From IMG/VR virus record IMGVR_UViG_3300027804_000176, positions 1-28,851 of that record: a stretch of DNA of 28,851 nt, one strand, 5' to 3'. The notes beneath the pieces are model-generated. The model had not been told where the DNA came from and ran no database searches. It worked only from the letters and a program-made list of their open reading frames with translations. Numbering within the stretch: the stretch's first letter is position 1; each line of letters opens with the position of its first letter. Source of the DNA: a virus (lineage: Duplodnaviria > Caudoviricetes). Positions 3,383-17,562 of the stretch are shown piece by piece. The position numbers and the translations under genes were made by a program.

Positions 3383-3579
3383 TTTCACAATGTGAAATGA
3401 GTTGCTGTAAGTCCTTGATGTTTGACGGGGATGCGGGGGTTGCGGGGGTTAATTCCAGTTTACCCTCTATCTTTATTTTTCTTTTTTAAAAAAATATAAA
3501 AATAGTAAAAGTACCCCCGCAAGTACCGCGAGCCCGTCGAAGATCAATGACTTAGCTCGTTTCGTTTCACATTGTGAAA
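3383..3579. repeat. Origin-like quasi-palindromic element, copy 1
   Basis: TTTCACAwTGTGAAA palindromes at both ends (3383-3397, 3565-3579); IHF-like ATCAAnnnnTTA sites (3408-3420, 3542-3554); GCGGGGGT/ACCCCCGC inverted repeats around a 62-bp AT-rich core (3451-3512). Confidence 0.8.
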
Positions 3580-3916: not shown

Positions 3917-4260
3917 TTTTCCTCCTTGATCTTGTGTACAATGTCTGCCACCTTGTTGCCACGCTCTTCCCAACTGTCCTGCGTGCCGTAGTCGCCCCTG
4001 CTCATGCGCATGCGCTCCTTGTCTCTAAACTCGGGCTCAACTGCTAGCCAGTTTGAGAATGCCTCCTTGTACTCGAGCCACTCGTCGTTCTGTACGAATA
4101 GGGGGTGGTTCATGCCTGCGACGTCCACGCACGCCGAGTAGTCGGATAGTGGCACCCAACTATAATTTTTGTTTGGCTTGACCGCACCCAGTCCGACTCG
4201 GTCGCGTGCCTTGATAAAGCGTGCGTATGCCTTCTGTTGTATTTCGTTTAGTTCAATCAT
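3913..4260 (-). CDS. Hypothetical protein, translationally coupled to the sigma factor
   Basis: 115-aa ORF overlapping the sigma stop by 8 nt. Confidence 0.75.
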   Translation of the reverse strand: MIELNEIQQKAYARFIKARDRVGLGAVKPNKNYSWVPLSDYSACVDVAGMNHPLFVQNDEWLEYKEAFSNWLAVEPEFRDKERMRMSRGDYGTQDSWEERGNKVADIVHKIKEEK

Positions 4261-4825
4261 CTAAGTGCTCCTCGGTAAACTTCTCTTGGTTAATGTGGTC
4301 AAGTGAGACTGGCTCACGTGCGATGTATCCCTGCAACTGGTGCACCTTGCTCTCTGTCACGCCCATGAGTGTGGCTATCTCGTGCGTCTTGGGTTTGCGT
4401 CCCAGTACTTGGGATAGCGATCGCTCGGTGTAGTTCAACTTCTTTACCTGCTCCATGATGTTAATTGGTAGCCGTATGATGTTTGCCGTGTTGTCTAGGT
4501 CACGCCGTACGCCCTTCTCAATAAACGTTTTGGCGTAGGTGGCAAAGCGCGCGTTGTTCTTAGGCACCCACCGGCGACCTGCCGTAAACAGTGCCTCGTT
4601 ACCCATCGCGACTATGTCCTCCACTGGCACCTTGCCGTGGTTCCACGCTGTCATCTTACGGACGACGTAGACCACAAAGCGCAGGTTGTGCTTGATCAAC
4701 TTCTCTAGCGCACGCTCGTCGCCTGCCTGAATCTTTTTGGCGAGCTCGTGCTCTTCCTCAACTGTCAGTGGCTCGATGCCGTACAGTGACTTGAGGTAGT
4801 CGCTCAGTATGTCATTTTCTTTCAT
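4253..4825 (-). CDS. Phage sigma70-family (RpoD/RpoS-like) factor with regions 1.2, 2 and 3 but no region 4
   Basis: YL...PLTVEEEHELAKKIQAGDERALEKLIKHNLRFVV (1.2/2.1); DIVAMGN...RFATYA...IRLP (2.2-2.4); LSQVLGRKPKTHEIA...VSLD (3); stop follows shortly after. Confidence 0.9.
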   Translation of the reverse strand: MKENDILSDYLKSLYGIEPLTVEEEHELAKKIQAGDERALEKLIKHNLRFVVYVVRKMTAWNHGKVPVEDIVAMGNEALFTAGRRWVPKNNARFATYAKTFIEKGVRRDLDNTANIIRLPINIMEQVKKLNYTERSLSQVLGRKPKTHEIATLMGVTESKVHQLQGYIAREPVSLDHINQEKFTEEHLDD

Positions 4826-7460: not shown

Positions 7461-7654
7461 TTTGTTAACCCCTCTATAAATTGTTTTGCCTCTGCCTCAG
7501 TGTCGAACGAACGGCTGACACTGCTAGACCATCCGCCGTGATCTGCCATCACGATAAACTTATCGAGACGATAGCCGATCCTAGTAATCCGGTACGTTGG
7601 ATTTTCGGCGCGTGGTTGGTTCCAAATCTTAGCGCAATCTTTATCGTAGCTCAT
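7457..7654 (-). CDS. Early hypothetical protein
   Basis: ORF track 7457..7678, start moved to ATG 7654 behind AGGAGA. Confidence 0.7.
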   Translation of the reverse strand: MSYDKDCAKIWNQPRAENPTYRITRIGYRLDKFIVMADHGGWSSSVSRSFDTEAEAKQFIEGLTK

Positions 7655-7716
7655 ATTATCTCCTGTTGATGTGATCATTGTACTGGGTCAGTGGCTCATA
7701 GAACGAGCCACTGATT

Positions 7717-8097
7717 TTATTTTACCTGAAATGGTTTGTCGTAGTCGCCGATATTGACGTGGTAATAGTACGCCGTGTCAAAGTAGTCGACCATCGCGTC
7801 ACTGCGGTCGTAGTATCCGGCGCTTTGCATTGCCTCCATGACCTTAGCCAATACGTCGCGTGTCTTGCCATCGTAATGGTCTTGGAACCAGTAAGGGTTG
7901 ACCTGCGCGTGATCCTGTTGGAACGCGCTCAGCGCCTGCTTACGATCCGCGAGCATATTAAATGGCGCGCTCTTGATCGTGCACGTGATGCTCATGTGAT
8001 TTTGTACCCGCAGGCTAAACTTAACGCCCAGTGGCTTGAGTACCTTGTCGAGGTTTGCCTTGATTACTGCCTTTTTGTCTTGGTTCATGTATGCCAT
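7717..8097 (-). CDS. Early protein resembling large-polyvalent-protein-associated domain (LPD29-like) proteins
   Basis: KFSLR...VNPY...DRSDAMVDYFD..YY pattern, recognised from memory and not searched. Confidence 0.6.
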   Translation of the reverse strand: MAYMNQDKKAVIKANLDKVLKPLGVKFSLRVQNHMSITCTIKSAPFNMLADRKQALSAFQQDHAQVNPYWFQDHYDGKTRDVLAKVMEAMQSAGYYDRSDAMVDYFDTAYYYHVNIGDYDKPFQVK

Positions 8098-8112
8098 GGT
8101 GATATTCTCCTG

Positions 8113-8511
8113 TTATTTAGCCCTAAAACACGCCTGCACGATCGAGCGTGGTAAACCTGCCTCGGTGTTGCCGTTGTCGTGGTAGACGCCGTCAATCAGC
8201 GCCACGGCGTGTCCGCTCTTGATCACGATAAAGTTACCCTTGGGGTTGTGCTTGGCAAACGTTGCCAGTGTGCACCGGTTGCCCCGACTGTATCGCTCGA
8301 GCTTGGCGTCTTTGTTGGCGCTGAGTATTTGGATTGCCTTGTCGGTTTGGGCGCGCATCATGCCACGGCGTGGCTTGCGCCCTGCCTTGGCACATACCTC
8401 GTGCACCTCGGGATAGGCGCGGTTGAATGCGAGCGATAGCGCCCGAACTACGCAGTCTCGGGACTCTGCCTCGATTGTGCGTGGGTTGTTGCAGATGTAT
8501 TGAAAGTTCAT
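8113..8511 (-). CDS. Early protein with DCVVRA...GHAVA..DG Cys/His motif (possible peptidase-like fold)
   Basis: ORF track; AGGAG SD directly downstream of hammerhead 1. Confidence 0.7.
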   Translation of the reverse strand: MNFQYICNNPRTIEAESRDCVVRALSLAFNRAYPEVHEVCAKAGRKPRRGMMRAQTDKAIQILSANKDAKLERYSRGNRCTLATFAKHNPKGNFIVIKSGHAVALIDGVYHDNGNTEAGLPRSIVQACFRAK

Positions 8512-8534
8512 AGGCTCTCCTGTGTTGTGTGTGT

Positions 8535-8590
8535 GGTCTCATCAGTGCACGCCTAACGTGCAGACCATGGATTGTACCATGGTTTCGACC
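8535..8590 (-). ncRNA. Hammerhead ribozyme, type II (copy 1)
   Basis: Minus strand: GGUC-GAAA-CCAUGG(UACAAU)CCAUGG-UC^-UGCACG(UUAGG)CGUGCA-CUGAUGA-GACC. Complete core and all three stems; predicted cut between 8563 and 8562. Confidence 0.93.
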
Positions 8591-8592
8591 TG

Positions 8593-9012
8593 TTACTCGT
8601 CCGAAAATAAAACTTCTAATTTTGCGTCAATCATTTCAATCATCTTTTGCTTAAGATCGGCGAGGTATCTGACGCGATATGGTGTAGGGTCATCGTAGCC
8701 ACCATCAGCACCATTTAGGTATTGCCCAAGGCAAAAGTCTCGTAAATATGCCAATCTGTCCGCCTTGTACTTCTTTGCTACTTCAAAGGCAAATGCGTTG
8801 ATGTCATCTACTTCACTAGCTAGAAAGAGGTGCTCGTCTTGCCCGATGTAAATTTGATGCTTGGTCATCGTGCCGTTACTGGCATGGGAGGCAGTGCCTA
8901 CCTTTTTGCCCCAACTTTGAATGGTTAGCTTTTTGACCATCACCTTGCTGAACATTTCGTCCCATTGAACTATTGACCAAACTACGTCGCCTTTTTTGAA
9001 TTGCTTTGCCAT
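8593..9012 (-). CDS. Early hypothetical protein, flanked by hammerheads on both sides
   Basis: 139-aa ORF; AGGAG SD. Confidence 0.8.
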   Translation of the reverse strand: MAKQFKKGDVVWSIVQWDEMFSKVMVKKLTIQSWGKKVGTASHASNGTMTKHQIYIGQDEHLFLASEVDDINAFAFEVAKKYKADRLAYLRDFCLGQYLNGADGGYDDPTPYRVRYLADLKQKMIEMIDAKLEVLFSDE

Positions 9013-9033
9013 GGTGTAATCTCCTATTTAATT

Positions 9034-9086
9034 GGTCATCATCAGTCAGCGCCTAACGCTGAGACCGGATCGCTCCGGTTTCGACC
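9034..9086 (-). ncRNA. Hammerhead ribozyme, type II (copy 2)
   Basis: GGUC-GAAA-CCGGA(GCGA)UCCGG-UC^-UCAGCG(UUAGG)CGCUGA-CUGAUGA-U-GACC. One extra U after A9; predicted cut between 9063 and 9062. Confidence 0.9.
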
Positions 9087-9088
9087 TG

Positions 9089-9283
9089 TTAGCCCTCAAT
9101 TTTGATGGCTAGGATGCGCAACTGCTTGCGCTTTTCTTCGAGCTTGGCGATGTCGAGCTTGGCGAACTCAGAGTCCATGCCGTAGAGCTCTGAGAGCTCG
9201 GTGTTGATTTTGTACTCTTGATCCCAAATACCACGCATTAAAGTGTAGCGCTCGTCCCTGCTCAGTGTAATTGTAAAGTCCAT
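9089..9283 (-). CDS. Early hypothetical protein, flanked by hammerheads
   Basis: ORF track 9089..9310, start moved to ATG 9283 behind GGAGG. Confidence 0.7.
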   Translation of the reverse strand: MDFTITLSRDERYTLMRGIWDQEYKINTELSELYGMDSEFAKLDIAKLEEKRKQLRILAIKIEG

Positions 9284-9301
9284 AAAGCCTCCGTGTTGGT
9301 T

Positions 9302-9354
9302 GGTCATCATCAGTCAGCGCCTAACGCTGAGACCGGATCGCTCCGGTTTCGACC
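9302..9354 (-). ncRNA. Hammerhead ribozyme, type II (copy 3)
   Basis: Identical to copy 2 (9300-9356 = 9032-9088); predicted cut between 9331 and 9330. Confidence 0.9.
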
Positions 9355-9357
9355 TGA

Positions 9358-9552
9358 TTAAAAGGGAATGGCCATTGAGTGGCGATAAAACAAATCGCAG
9401 GCGTGGGCGCCTTGATTTGTAGCTAAGTACTGCGCATACTCTTCGGCGTTGGCCTGCTCTTCTTCGGCCAGTACAGCATCACTCTCGCCACCATAATGCC
9501 GGCAGGCTTGAGCGTAGGATTCGAATTGGTTGCCGTTGATGTCTTGGTACAT
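9358..9552 (-). CDS. First gene of the early operon, small acidic protein
   Basis: ORF track; AGGAGA SD. Confidence 0.75.
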   Translation of the reverse strand: MYQDINGNQFESYAQACRHYGGESDAVLAEEEQANAEEYAQYLATNQGAHACDLFYRHSMAIPF

Positions 9553-9729
9553 ATGATCTCCTATTGGTTAGTACTGCCTCGAGCGCCCTATTGCTAAGGC
9601 GCTCTGAGCATTACTATCTGTTAGCATACGCTGTGTTGGATAACAGCACCGGTTCTGCCGGCTCCCCCTTATAGATCGCGGTTGGGTTTGCGTTTGAGTG
9701 GATTAGCCACTGCACTTCCGATACCCTCT

Positions 9730-9759
9730 ATTGTACAGACCTTTTGGATTAAATGTAAA
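9730..9759 (-). promoter_or_regulatory. Host sigma70-type major early promoter
   Basis: TTTACA-N18-TACAAT; shares AAAAGGTCTG-TAyAAT with the promoter at 5470-5498. Confidence 0.7.
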
Positions 9760-9778
9760 TAGAATACCTGACTAAATT

Positions 9779-9803
9779 GTGGGGGATTGTGGGATACTGT
9801 GGG
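9779..9803 (+). promoter_or_regulatory. MraZ-box-like triple direct repeat
   Basis: GTGGG at 9779, 9789 and 9799, exact 10-bp period. Confidence 0.6.
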
Positions 9804-9997
9804 TTGGCAAATTGCCTAACATCTCGCCCACCCTAGCGCCCAGCCCTCGCGCCCGCAAAGCCTTTGTGGAGGCACCCCGAGTCCACCATGGCACGATCGC
9901 AGACCACTTAATACCTAACCATCAGAAAGTACGATCGTGGCGTGGCGCCCCTTTAAAACGCGTCCAATCCGTCAACTAGGGGAAACCCTAACAGCCA

Positions 9998-10159
9998 GCT
10001 AAGTTAGTTGGCACTTACTAACTTAGCACTCGGGCAATGAGAGTGCTGATAATGGGGACAGAGTCGGCGCTCGGCCATGTTAGTTAGTACTCACTAACAT
10101 ACTGGCTACTTGGCAGGGGGGCGCGGTGCCTCGATGTTAGTAAGCGCTCACTAACATCG
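9998..10159. repeat. Three palindromic operator-like sites AwGTTAGT-N8-ACTAACwT
   Basis: 10001-10024, 10077-10100, 10134-10157. Confidence 0.8.
10023..10049. promoter_or_regulatory. CIRCE element (HrcA operator)
   Basis: TTAGCACTC-GGGCAATGA-GAGTGCTGA, 17/18 match to TTAGCACTC-N9-GAGTGCTAA with the correct spacer. Confidence 0.8.
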
Positions 10160-10173
10160 GCGCGCTCGAGCTG

Positions 10174-10270
10174 TGCACCAATCTGGTGCACGTGCACCAA
10201 GGCGGTGAATTTGTGCACCATTTTGGTGCATGGGGGGCTTTTTCATGATGCGATGCACCAATTTGGGTCC
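10174..10270. promoter_or_regulatory. Cluster of NtrC-type boxes
   Basis: Perfect TGCACCA-N3-TGGTGCA at 10174-10190 and 10214-10230; imperfect at 10193-10209; half-site at 10254. Confidence 0.75.
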
Positions 10271-10362
10271 CGTGGCGGGGCGGCGGCCCGGGGGCCCCAC
10301 AGACCCCAAGCTCGTTCCATTCCCCACAAAAACCGACTTTCTAAAATTTTTTTTGTAAAATA

Positions 10363-10520
10363 TTTCACAATGTGAAACGGAATGCGCTAAGTCCTTGATG
10401 TTCGACGGGGATGCGGGGGTTGCGGGGGTTACTTTATTATTTTTATTATTTTTAAAAAATAAAAAATAAAGATAGAGGGAAACCTGGAATATACCCCCGC
10501 AAGTGCCGCAAGTGCCGCGC
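10363..10520. repeat. Origin-like element, copy 2 (core inverted relative to copy 1)
   Basis: 10363-10430 is nearly identical to 3383-3450; the 62-bp core 10431-10492 matches the reverse complement of 3451-3512. Confidence 0.8.
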
Positions 10521-10554
10521 TTCTGCGAGCAAAATTGATAGTTAAAAACTATTG

Positions 10555-10591
10555 GGGCTATAATAATCAAATGTTTGCATTAGTAGATGTA
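10555..10591 (+). promoter_or_regulatory. Phage late promoter (GGGC-N17-TGCATTAGT), leaderless
   Basis: Motif repeated at four gene-block starts; predicted +1 is the A of ATG 10591. Confidence 0.75.
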
Positions 10592-10932
10592 TGAACGAAT
10601 ATGTTTATCAGATCCAGGGTGCCCTAGAAGATTCCAATGGAAGACTTAGGGGGTTCCGTGTCTTAGTCTGTGATCTGAACTACTTTGACTCTGCCGACGC
10701 GCCAGTTGAAATATTGGACAAAGAGACGGCTAGGTACATCGAGTTTCGTTTAAAGGTCTGCGAGCACCTGGACATTAACCGGCTGCCCGTAGAAATCCAA
10801 AACAAAATTAGGACGCCGTTAGGGCGTTGGTTGGACCTGTGGGTCCTAGATAATTTTTATGGCCATACTAGCAAATCAAAAAGTCCTGACCCTGGACTAC
10901 TGGAAACCGGCAAACAAAATCCAGCCGGGTGA
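10591..10932 (+). CDS. Hypothetical protein, first gene of the late arm
   Basis: 113-aa ORF with no SD, directly behind the promoter motif. Confidence 0.7.
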   Translation: MNEYVYQIQGALEDSNGRLRGFRVLVCDLNYFDSADAPVEILDKETARYIEFRLKVCEHLDINRLPVEIQNKIRTPLGRWLDLWVLDNFYGHTSKSKSPDPGLLETGKQNPAG

Positions 10933-11851
10933 TTACCTGTTTGACCGGAACGGTAAGCCGGTGCGGGTAAAGTTGGTACAGGAATACTTCTCAGACGACT
11001 GCTACGAGGTCATGTTAAATGACTACCTGACAATCTCTGGCGACAAGCGCCTAGAATTTTTAGTGGAAAACTTTAAATATAGGGACAGAGTCATACAATA
11101 CAAGGGATACCACCCCTTTAGGCGGCCATTAAAGCCGATGAATGTGGAGATGTTGCTAGATAGCGACCTGAAAGACGAAACAAATTGTAAGATCTACTCG
11201 ATTCCTACCACAAAACCGATTGAGCTACCCCACCAGACACTACCAGTCCCGCCGTTTGTCTTTGGATTTTGGTTTATAAACCGCAAACCTAGCGGATTTT
11301 TTACGACAACCCCGTCGACACAGGAAGAAGTGGAGCGCCAGCTCAAAGATTTTGGGTATAAAATCAAAATTCGCAAGACAATACACAACGGCTGGCGCCA
11401 ATTTACCATATCGCCGACCATAGAGTCACAGTTGGCCCCCGGTATCCCAACAAAAATACCGGCAAACTACCTGCTGGCGGACAAAGAGCAGCGAATTGAG
11501 CTGCTGCGTGGCATATTATTTGCAAAACCGCGCCAATATTCGCCGCGTAGGGACCTGTTTAGGTTCTCTAGCACACATTACGGCACGGCCTTGGCAATTC
11601 AGGGCCTGGTTGAGTCGCTGGGTGGCAAAACTAACCTCGCGTTTACAGAAAAAAATAGTACCTACACACTAACCTTTAAAACTAGGTTGAAACTGGTACC
11701 TAATCAGGTATCTAAGCCGATAAAAATACACCAAGCGCGTAGGTATATTGAAAAAATTACAAAGATCCAGCCACAGACCTGTGTTCACATCGAGACAGAC
11801 GGGCCGGATAACAGCTATCTCGTAGGAGAGGGTTTTATTTCATGTCGTTAA
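10859..11851 (+). CDS. Free-standing degenerate intein-like protein (Hint plus inactive LAGLIDADG), no exteins
   Basis: Hint N-part (KVLT...IQPGDYLFDRNGKPVRV...CYEV); LAGLIDADG-like blocks (PPFVFGFW, IPANYLLADKEQRIELLRGI, LVESLGG); Hint C-part (RYIEKI...CVHIETD...SYLVGEGFISCR-stop). Confidence 0.8.
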   Translation: MAILANQKVLTLDYWKPANKIQPGDYLFDRNGKPVRVKLVQEYFSDDCYEVMLNDYLTISGDKRLEFLVENFKYRDRVIQYKGYHPFRRPLKPMNVEMLLDSDLKDETNCKIYSIPTTKPIELPHQTLPVPPFVFGFWFINRKPSGFFTTTPSTQEEVERQLKDFGYKIKIRKTIHNGWRQFTISPTIESQLAPGIPTKIPANYLLADKEQRIELLRGILFAKPRQYSPRRDLFRFSSTHYGTALAIQGLVESLGGKTNLAFTEKNSTYTLTFKTRLKLVPNQVSKPIKIHQARRYIEKITKIQPQTCVHIETDGPDNSYLVGEGFISCR

Positions 11852-13287
11852 CACCAAAACAGGAACTTGAATTAAAGAAGTTCGCACAAGCACGCACGCA
11901 CTGGCCTAAGGACCAGCTCGAGGCCGCCATTTGGCAGGTCAAGTGGCACCTACAGGCACTGCCGCACCAACGGGAGCCAGACGATGGCGAATATGACACG
12001 TTTCTTATGCTTGCCGGCCGAGGGTCGGGTAAGACGCACACTGCTAGCCACTGGATTGGTATCCGCGCTTGGGTTTATGACAACACCCGCTGGCTCGTCA
12101 CCGCTCCCACCTCAAACGATATACGTGCAACTTGTTTCGAGGGGGACTCTGGACTTCTCAATATCATTCCCCCGTCACTTATTCGAGACTACAACAAGTC
12201 CCTGTTTGAAATCACCCTTACAAATGGATCTCTTATACAGGGGATTCCGGCCTCAGAGCCCGAGCGCTACCGAGGTAAGCAATATCACGGCGCCTGGTTT
12301 GACGAGCTGTGTGCATTTGATTACATCGACGATGCCTACGATGGCGTACAGTTTACGCTCCGCTTACGGGACCCACGCATCCGTCGAGTGCAGCAGATTA
12401 TTACCACCACACCCAAGCCAAAAGAATTAATTGTAGACCTAAACGAGGGTAAAGTAGGCGGCGACGTGTACGTGTCAAACGCCTCGTCTTATGACAACAG
12501 AGCCAACCTCTCAGAGACGTTCTTCAAACAGCTTGAGACTTACGACGGCACTGACATTGGCCGCCAAGAGATCTATGGCGAGATCCTTGACCCGGAGCAG
12601 TCCGGCATCATCAAGCGCAAACAATTTAAGCTCTGGCCGGCCAATAAGCCTACCCCGACACTGGAGTATGTCATTGCGTCGTATGATCCGGCGACTTCTG
12701 AGAAGACAATGAACGACCCGACCGCCTGCACCATCTGGGGCGTGTTTGAGCAGCAAGACGCTGGCACGGCAATTATTTTATTGGACGCCTGGGACGAGCA
12801 CCTGTCCTACCCGGAGCTACGTAGGAAGGTAATCAACGACTTTAAAGAAGTTGTATACGGCGCCGATAATGACTTTGGCAAGGGCCGAAAGGCGGACCTG
12901 ATCCTGATGGAAGACAAGTCGGCGGGTATCTCGCTGATCCAAGAGCTCCAGGGCGCCGGCGTCCCGGTCCGTGGATACAACCCCGGCCGCGCCGATAAGG
13001 TACAACGATTAAACATTGTAGCACCCCTGGTGTCTAAGGGCAAGGTCTGGATACCAGAGGAACCACAACGCAAGGGAGAATATGCAGACTGGGCAAAACG
13101 TTTTCTGCGTCAAGTATGTTCATTTCCAGAGGCTGGCGGACACGACGACTACGTCGACTCACTCTCGCAAGCGCTGCGCGTTTTACGTGATTCTGGATGG
13201 ATCCAACTCGACCCGCTACCAGCTCGAGACTATAGTTACGTGGACGACGACATGAGCAAGCGATTTGTGAACCCGTACGCCCAGTAG
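11842..13287 (+). CDS. terL: Terminase large subunit
   Basis: Walker A AGRGSGKT, Walker B AWFDE, motif C TTTP; RNase H-like nuclease motifs DPA...D, EDKSAG, FP...HDDYVDSLSQAL. Confidence 0.95.
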   Translation: MSLTPKQELELKKFAQARTHWPKDQLEAAIWQVKWHLQALPHQREPDDGEYDTFLMLAGRGSGKTHTASHWIGIRAWVYDNTRWLVTAPTSNDIRATCFEGDSGLLNIIPPSLIRDYNKSLFEITLTNGSLIQGIPASEPERYRGKQYHGAWFDELCAFDYIDDAYDGVQFTLRLRDPRIRRVQQIITTTPKPKELIVDLNEGKVGGDVYVSNASSYDNRANLSETFFKQLETYDGTDIGRQEIYGEILDPEQSGIIKRKQFKLWPANKPTPTLEYVIASYDPATSEKTMNDPTACTIWGVFEQQDAGTAIILLDAWDEHLSYPELRRKVINDFKEVVYGADNDFGKGRKADLILMEDKSAGISLIQELQGAGVPVRGYNPGRADKVQRLNIVAPLVSKGKVWIPEEPQRKGEYADWAKRFLRQVCSFPEAGGHDDYVDSLSQALRVLRDSGWIQLDPLPARDYSYVDDDMSKRFVNPYAQ

Positions 13288-17121: not shown

Positions 17122-17562
17122 ATGGCATTTGATATATCACAAAAGGAAGACCCAGATCTTCGTTCGGAAGCGGAATGCTTTCCAGACATAGATCCAGGTA
17201 TTGAAGTAGCCGGAGACCGCGTGTTAGTACAATTACGACGGGAGAAGGCAAAAAGTAAGGGCGGAATCATTTTAGTTGACGAAACCCGACAGACGTTACG
17301 TTTCAATGAGACTGTAGCTAAGGTACGCCAGATTGGCCCACTAGCATATAAGTCGCCAGATACCTTAGAGCCTTGGATTGAAGGCCCCTGGTGTAAAGAA
17401 GGCGATTTGGTTAGAACCATCAAGTACGGCGGTGACCGTTTCGTTGTTAATCCGGATGATGATGGCTCCCCCGTGGTGTTTATTACCATCCAGGCACGTG
17501 AAATCATCTCACGCATCAAGTCGTTTGACCACGCGCAGAAGATGAAAGCGTTTGTAGACTAA
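17122..17562 (+). CDS. groES: GroES/Cpn10-like co-chaperonin
   Basis: GDRVLVQ...KSKGGIILVD...AKVRQIGP...KEGDLV...KYGG. Confidence 0.85.
   Translation: MAFDISQKEDPDLRSEAECFPDIDPGIEVAGDRVLVQLRREKAKSKGGIILVDETRQTLRFNETVAKVRQIGPLAYKSPDTLEPWIEGPWCKEGDLVRTIKYGGDRFVVNPDDDGSPVVFITIQAREIISRIKSFDHAQKMKAFVD

Follow-up and report, generated by a model that had tools for sequence, protein, structure and literature searches.

We identified, in the intergenic DNA of a lytic freshwater phage, a dense array of sites resembling the operators of unrelated host regulators, which is located between the leftward early promoter and the terminase operon. Judged from sequence comparisons, the array is real, selected and widespread, and its boxes are very probably selected host-protein sites. 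Across relatives, it is the position and the density of the array that are conserved, not the identity of the binder. In our preferred reading, to which we give a probability of roughly 0.45, the array would be an occupancy-type docking patch at or near the chromosome end, which holds, ratchets or shields the entering DNA.

The window, that is, the whole 28.9-kb stretch of DNA analysed here, is a tailed-phage fragment that is 44% complete. Its left side carries small leftward early genes and a primase, and its right side carries terminase, portal, GroES-like, capsid and tail genes. The array is housed in a 1-kb divergent gap (9553-10590), where it lies between a leftward and a rightward promoter-like site (Table 1). 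As the initial annotation had stated, this segment contains no credible gene: neither of its ORFs, at 9779-9979 and 10151-10570, matches PHROG or Pfam. The 113-aa ORF that opens the terminase operon has 382 homologues, of which the 120 listed are all unnamed or hypothetical; it is at most a candidate small terminase, as it shows no similarity to the small terminase of Caulobacter phage RW and has no family or atlas assignment. Phage RW and its kin also carry the nearest cultured TerL (42%). A 330-aa ORF (10859-11851) overlaps the start of terL and weakly matches a terminase profile; by eye it resembles a free-standing intein or homing-endonuclease piece, and it diverges far faster than TerL.

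The metagenomes carrying this phage DNA are freshwater or aquatic wherever they are labelled. A complete relative (G304; 65.8 kb, TerL 88%) encodes PolA, an SNF2 helicase, a class II ribonucleotide reductase and lysis genes, and no integrase or regulator family was detectable with Pfam among the 75 ORFs tested, so the phage looks strictly lytic. The host is probably betaproteobacterial, and the box repertoire fits the order of the freshwater betaproteobacterial metagenome-assembled genome G001, presumably Burkholderiales. A TerL search of 401 genomes returned a single match, a 56% relative within G001. The intergenic DNA and two related arrays gave no match to cultured phages apart from one weak hit, and the sigma-factor gene of the phage, considered as a host clue, gave distant matches only. 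The CIRCE element of genome G320 shares 24 consecutive bases with the phage site; as spacers vary within that genus and G320 lacks SlmA, we regard the match as a curiosity.

Several other features of the window were observed. The sigma-70-like protein (190 aa; 4253-4825, minus strand) matches regions 1.2, 2 and 3, with no match to region 4. A GroES-like co-chaperonin is encoded at 17122-17562, which is of interest next to a CIRCE site because titration of HrcA would free host groESL. The first early genes are separated by three intergenic repeats on the minus strand (8535-8590, 9035-9087 and 9302-9354), which fold as type II hammerhead ribozymes with a conserved core, using what we take to be the hammerhead core motif; Rfam returned no match for them. 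Run contigs contain joints between these repeats, which may also drive early-gene shuffling. Moreover, a strong hairpin in the early leader (9560-9625, minus strand; z -6.0) is conserved in relatives with different neighbouring genes.

All elements listed in the initial annotation are present in the array, at the positions that it gave. The motifs used for CIRCE, NtrC, MraZ, IscR, Fur, sigma54, PhaR, IHF, DnaA and LexA are those that we take to be the accepted consensus. The IclR group-1 and SlmA consensus sequences were taken from the passages of PMC8222616 and PMC3020112, respectively, that describe them. None of 2000 dinucleotide shuffles of 9764-10270 equalled the array in its CIRCE element (one mismatch), its pair of perfect NtrC-type boxes, its MraZ-type triple repeat, its IscR half-site, its three N8 palindromes or its palindrome at 9977-9990, in tests that are post hoc in that the patterns came from the tested sequence itself. 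The same six motifs are absent from the remaining 27.8 kb of the window. Additionally, the array contains eight palindromes with arms of at least 6, compared with a mean of 1.1 and a maximum of 7 in 500 shuffles. Not every annotated element was equally convincing: the palindromes at 9806-9816 and 9931-9938 are present but weak, being reached in 2 and 4 of the 2000 shuffles, and the proposed likeness to IscR holds for the half-site but not for the full 25-bp site, which had no match at ≤5 mismatches. No exact sigma54 site was found between 9560 and 10590, and no DnaA box in the array.

The array extends slightly beyond 10270, to the IclR-type box and the IHF-like site, and the IclR-type box is found twice more in the window, at 3383 and 3565. 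The G/C run that forms the right anchor is a candidate packaging or end signal. The unit of the short direct repeats beyond it differs between relatives, suggesting that these repeats are probably bound by a phage protein and are origin- or pac-like.

Table 1. Features of the divergent gap and the start of the terminase operon (positions in the window)
Feature	Position	Strand	Remarks
Sigma70-type promoter-like site	9730-9759	-	Faces leftward early genes; 10/12 consensus matches; kept in close relatives
IscR type-1 half-site look-alike	9764-9778	+	5 bp upstream of -35 box; 12/32 terL-selected arrays
MraZ-type triple repeat, 10-bp period	9779-9803	+	19/32 arrays
Short palindrome, poorly conserved	9806-9816	.	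2/2000 shuffles; exact in 2/43 upstream regions
C-rich non-palindromic left anchor of the variable array	9823-9856	+	Invariant column block in 17-sequence alignment; core in most arrays
8-bp palindrome, probably incidental	9931-9938	.	4/2000 shuffles; exact in 6/43 upstream regions; one further copy in window
N4 palindrome, host intergenic motif	9977-9990	.	21/32 arrays
SlmA-type (TetR-family) site	10003-10022	.	2 mismatches in 12-bp core
CIRCE (HrcA operator)	10023-10049	.	1 mismatch; 11/32 arrays
Recurrent G-rich non-palindromic module	10050-10065	+	15/67 arrays
SlmA-type site	10079-10098	.	1 mismatch in core
SlmA-type site	10136-10155	.	Perfect 12-bp core; exact core in 23/32 arrays
NtrC-type boxes	10174-10230	.	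10174-10190 and 10214-10230 perfect; 10193-10209 with 2 mismatches; 27/32 arrays
G/C-run right anchor, then A/T tracts	10265-10298	+	Invariant columns in 17-sequence alignment
IclR-family group-1 type box	10362-10378	.	16/17 consensus positions; 25/32 arrays at ≤2 mismatches
IHF-like site	10388-10400	-	1 mismatch; exact sites cluster ~190-260 bp upstream of the 113-aa ORF in relatives
Short direct repeats, inverted arrangement around A/T-rich palindrome	10412-10519	.	Repeat unit differs between relatives
Sigma70-type promoter-like site	10535-10564	+	Faces late operon; 11/12 matches
Conserved 113-aa ORF, first in terminase operon	10591-10932	+	382 homologues
Terminase large subunit	11842-13287	+	PHROGs 38 and 2; 42% identity to Caulobacter phage RW TerL

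As relatives, we analysed the best 80 of the 383 IMG/VR stretches that were confirmed by TerL. An alignment of 17 of them revealed a fixed scaffold, in which the left and right anchors enclose a freely changing interior. Together with loci from later pattern scans, the relatives provided 107 loci and, after removal of redundancy, 67 arrays, each with 2-8 types of boxes that are swapped and duplicated (per array, 0-8 NtrC-type, 0-6 Fur-type and 0-5 SlmA-type copies). Thus, relatives do carry shuffled sets of boxes at the equivalent position, a check that the initial annotation had itself proposed. Fur, sigma54, PhaR and IclR types are added in relatives, and where sigma54 sites occur they are repeated in the middle of the array. 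Because many of the other loci had been selected by motif, box frequencies were taken from the 32 arrays selected by TerL alone; in addition to those in Table 1, these contain Fur in 15, IHF in 13, PhaR in 12 and sigma54 in 4, and the SlmA-type count rises to 25 when one mismatch is allowed. An exact DnaA box is present in 2 of the 67 arrays. The same patterns are nearly absent from 271.5 kb of downstream coding DNA (NtrC 2; Fur, sigma54, SlmA-type and CIRCE 0 each), and in two complete relatives the box motifs are concentrated at this single locus. Moreover, tandem perfect NtrC-type pairs were found in 61 stretches of the viral collection, 54 of which adjoin terminase genes of the phage family of the window. 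In some relatives (L032 1150-1700, L076), the left edge of the array carries an inserted ORF that by eye resembles a homing endonuclease.

The spacing within the boxes is fixed. NtrC-type arms occur 134 times at one spacing versus at most 9 times at any other, CIRCE arms 10 times versus 0, sigma54 elements 18 times versus at most 2, and IclR-type arms 21 times at theirs. Deviations from the consensus in the 67 arrays are asymmetric in 174 cases and symmetric in 7. The fixed spacers and asymmetric deviations suggest that the boxes are protein sites rather than RNA hairpins.

The likeness of the boxes to host-regulator sites, proposed initially from the phage sequence, was borne out in betaproteobacterial chromosomes, where CIRCE lies at groES or an rpoH-like sigma gene and the NtrC-type box at glutamine synthetase. 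Of the 41 genomes examined from the presumed host order, 33 contain CIRCE (control, 0), and 11 of the 12 host loci tested adjoin groES or a sigma-70-family gene; the 9-9-9 inverted repeat of the phage array is thus found before groES in the host group as well. The exact NtrC-type box occurs in 3 of the 41 genomes, in two of them upstream of glutamine synthetase (glnA), and looser MraZ-like repeats with a 10-bp period were found, under loose scoring, upstream of mraZ in four of five betaproteobacterial genomes. Seven host loci with the IscR half-site were tested, and their neighbours include an Rrf2 gene and two glutaredoxin genes; genome-wide the half-site is not enriched over the control. The 9977-9990 palindrome is found in 18 of 61 genomes of the G001 family versus 6 for the reversed control, with varied neighbouring genes. 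Among 101 genomes of the host order, the G-rich module (10050-10065) is no more frequent than its control.

For the three N8 palindromes, which the initial annotation had left unassigned, sites of the nucleoid-occlusion protein SlmA are the best candidate that sequence comparison offers, with another TetR protein as the alternative. The palindromes have the 12-bp core of the SlmA site, in which position 3 may be either purine and position 6 either pyrimidine. The column profile was built from 146 sites gathered with that pattern at one mismatch, so that rare variants are under-sampled in it; its preferences at positions 3 and 6 agree with the measured tolerances of SlmA sites in the relevant passages of PMC3020112. 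A protein scoring above the SlmA cut-off is encoded by 30 of the 41 genomes from the presumed host order. Five SlmA-positive chromosomes show no enrichment of the exact 12-bp core (4 sites versus 10 in the control, exact matches alone being scored). In GTDB, the 20-bp palindrome occurs 72 times; in 48 cases the neighbouring ORF that was chosen has a Pfam TetR domain, and a TetR head lies within 400 bp in 64 of the 72 loci, by a profile made from 22 of these same loci, and in 2 of 128 control windows. None of the 14 neighbours tested reaches the SlmA cut-off.

Similar arrays are found in unrelated phages. When stored viral DNA was scanned for the SlmA-type palindrome, for Fur-type tandems and for sigma54 tandems, an estimated 170, 170 and 330 stretches matched, of which 80 each were analysed. 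In the 48 clusters outside the family of the window, a terminase gene was present in 28, as judged from hand-picked ORFs, and the SlmA-, Fur- or NtrC-type locus was upstream of a terminase gene in 25. Under a single protocol for test and control, 22 of 56 clusters had tandem sigma54 sites ≤3 kb upstream of terL, versus 1 of 39 clusters of a shuffled-palindrome control (Fisher p 1.7e-5); three or four of the 22 look like the family of the window. The motif lay outside long ORFs in 46 of the 56 sigma54 clusters versus 16 of the 39 control clusters; since the control is more often inside ORFs, part of the terminase contrast may reflect the location of gene-free space. Three unrelated phages (L151, L251, L188) have the same order as the window, with the array followed by a G/C run, a T tract and the terminase genes, and in an unrelated cluster of 22 loci SlmA-type sites are nearly alone. 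In Manatee Spring phage MW202545, the gap upstream of the terminase holds unannotated ORFs and no array by eye. Additionally, Fur-type arrays occur in cultured phi92-like and T5-like enterobacterial phages (L479, L411), with 93 records matching one array query; CIRCE lies within ~110 bp of the record start in L730, L731, L744, L751, L755, L772, L773 and L795, most of which come from one data set; and L786 has three CIRCE elements in tandem.

Interchangeable boxes at a fixed position favour occupancy over regulon logic. In the simplest model, the chromosome end would lie at the G/C run near 10265-10298, with packaging proceeding into the terminase genes, and the array would then be on the end that is packaged last and enters first, in front of the early promoter. 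Upon entry into the cytoplasm, before phage gene expression, whichever host proteins are present would bind the array, and boxes for factors of differing conditions (such as iron, nitrogen, carbon storage and heat) would keep it occupied in any host state. Bound proteins can ratchet DNA or slow RecBCD/AddAB, and a patch of bound proteins may act as a clamp, ratchet or exonuclease shield, which aids entry or slows exonucleases. For Caulobacter phage RW, the sequence record stops within the corresponding divergent gap; the passages on RW make no statement of how the record ends were set. Read depth over 7500-10420 in four runs, assembled from contigs only, rises at ~9850 in three of them (X1, 238 to 670; X2, 5 to ~22; X3, 4.7 to 12-16) and goes from 32 to 39 in X5. 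This step was rejected as evidence of a genome end, because X1 may be the source sample, co-occurring strains can share the array, and X1 lacks a long piece covering the right side.

Several points count against a docking patch. Contig ends of relatives are scattered, with no shared end position. The link to terminase genes may simply arise because no gene-free space is larger than the early/late junction. SlmA-type and NtrC-type boxes greatly outnumber the others, which hints at specific roles. Finally, the array of T5, described below, is ~9.5 kb inside the first-entering end and not at its tip.

Among the functions offered by the initial annotation were a sponge that reprograms host regulons and a coating of the segment by host proteins. 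Of these, deliberate reprogramming of chaperone, division and nitrogen regulons is less supported by the sequence comparisons, and the coating alternative appears to fit better, because the box set varies freely between close relatives, mixes sites for activators, repressors and a sigma factor, and occupies one genomic position. A manipulation of the host by DNA alone would work as follows: the array, amplified during replication, would draw SlmA off the nucleoid and activate it everywhere, which would block Z-ring formation, and would also titrate scarce regulators (MraZ, HrcA, IscR, NtrC and Fur). Such a scheme is feasible, and it finds support in the position-by-position match of the phage columns to the SlmA tolerances reported in passages of PMC3020112, in the presence of SlmA in most genomes of the presumed host order, in the SlmA-type sites of 23-25 of the 32 arrays and the cluster in which they are nearly alone, and in the description in PMC4117426, as far as its passages on this plasmid go, of a multicopy plasmid with two SlmA sites that blocks Z rings at 4-fold SlmA. 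A sponge has no need of a fixed position, yet the position is conserved. Moreover, 7-9 of the 32 arrays have no SlmA-type site, and the patchy presence of these sites and of CIRCE (11), the IscR half-site (12) and Fur (15) indicates that the arrays do not target any regulon consistently. According to the A1 annotation, host DNA is degraded early in T5 infection, which would make titration of host genes pointless there. The lack of enrichment of the exact core in SlmA-positive chromosomes also weighs against this scheme, and the GTDB palindrome marks non-SlmA TetR-family genes, so that the binder may be another TetR protein. We consider a division block or a general sponge unlikely as the main function; it could be a second use of the same array DNA.

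We hold it to be rather improbable that the array is a sensor or timer of the phage, in which bound host factors would adjust the early promoter or keep the packaging signal and the late promoter hidden until genomes outnumber host proteins. In its favour, the two promoter-proximal boxes, the IscR half-site and the MraZ-type repeat, are 5-44 bp upstream of the early -35 box, the NtrC-type boxes together with the IHF-like site look like an enhancer, the candidate packaging signal directly adjoins the array, and passages of PMC2731898 describe phi29 promoters repressed via host Spo0A boxes. However, most boxes are 220-500 bp from either promoter, the promoter-proximal ones are absent in 13-20 of the 32 relatives, the window array has no sigma54 site while those of relatives are repeated mid-array, and the phage looks strictly lytic. 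Far less credible is the reading of the palindromes as structured RNA, a cruciform or phage-protein operators that resemble host boxes incidentally: the plus strand of the array does fold with z -6.1, as any palindrome-rich DNA would, and the IclR-type box is found at other intergenic places of these phages, but the fixed spacers, uncompensated deviations, loop-less palindromes, non-palindromic sigma54 and MraZ modules and free reordering, together with the lack of an Rfam match at gathering level, the agreement with six or more host consensus sites that were each defined independently, and the failure to detect a phage regulator, speak against it.

Among known systems, occupancy by host proteins is best compared with the injection stop signal of T5, which the tandem Fur-type scan matched (AY543070; L470 2410-2720). 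The annotated signal spans 9140-10149, within a terminal repeat that extends to 10219. With what we take to be the LexA-type and Fur-type consensus, it contains a perfect LexA-type palindrome (9409-9428), DnaA boxes and a Fur-type cluster (~9555-9720), and the calculated first-step shear point falls within the repeats of that cluster. The preprint by Davison (bioRxiv 10.1101/866236), in its passages on the signal, reports DnaA boxes only, proposes a stop by a host protein and calls the host factor unsolved; a text search of the preprint found no mention of LexA, and the matches to 'fur' examined were ordinary words. Passages of work on BF23 from 2023 (PMC10644984) state that experimental studies of such sites are still lacking. 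Like the window array, the T5 signal is gene-free and repeat-rich, has host-protein boxes next to short phage-specific repeats, and in T5 lies at the edge of the terminal repeat. By eye, an element with a period of roughly 10 bp is visible to the left of the boxes both in T5 and in the family of the window. In contrast to it, the window array has no DnaA box, and the box repertoire differs; the window array directly adjoins the terminase operon, unlike that of T5; and two-step entry and a long terminal repeat are T5 features, whereas the window phage is known from assembled contigs alone. The T5 A1 and A2 genes gave no match at E 0.01 in four family records, two of them complete, in a search run without a positive control. 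The window array thus does not appear to be a member of the T5 system, but it may work like it.

Other known systems share single aspects with the array. In phi29 and Nf, according to passages of PMC2731898, lytic phage DNA recruits host DNA-binding proteins via its own sites; these are Spo0A boxes and parS, for two factors, at defined promoters, origins and dispersed sites and with a known outcome, whereas the family of the window appears to pack sites of up to eight unrelated factors together, reshuffled and duplicated. The 12-bp core and the tolerated substitutions match those of SlmA sites and of multicopy SlmA-binding-site (SBS) plasmids in passages of PMC3020112 and PMC4117426, but a natural phage cluster differs from dispersed chromosomal sites or a laboratory plasmid, and the measured specificity may not be betaproteobacterial. 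Each module fits the consensus of a single host operator (CIRCE/HrcA, NtrC enhancer, MraZ box, IscR type 1, IclR group 1), although the phage boxes are detached from the cognate genes and are mostly far from any promoter. Unlike an NtrC/sigma54 enhancer-promoter pair, the window array is not followed by a sigma54 promoter that faces a gene. That lytic phage DNA can carry host-protein sites is already known (phi29, T5 DnaA boxes); what appears to be new is a multiplexed, reshuffling array beside packaging genes, with an architecture common to unrelated families and the T5 signal. Neither multiplexed host-site arrays nor Fur or LexA sites in the T5 signal were found in the open-access literature searched.

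Taken together, we tentatively propose, at less than even odds, that lytic phages of many families convergently evolved a protein-free device, namely end arrays of interchangeable host sites that use host proteins as entry clamp and end cap, and that the SlmA sites have a second role as a division inhibitor encoded in DNA; the injection stop signal of T5 would be one instance, and the stop would be a patch bound by LexA, DnaA and Fur. What the array defines is a class of cis-acting phage element that is widespread and so far unnamed; its box repertoire offers a possible way to infer the hosts of uncultured phages. If the SlmA branch is true, the phage would block host division by DNA alone. 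Moreover, the array gives a direct test for the half-century-old question of which host component stops T5 DNA at the injection stop signal.
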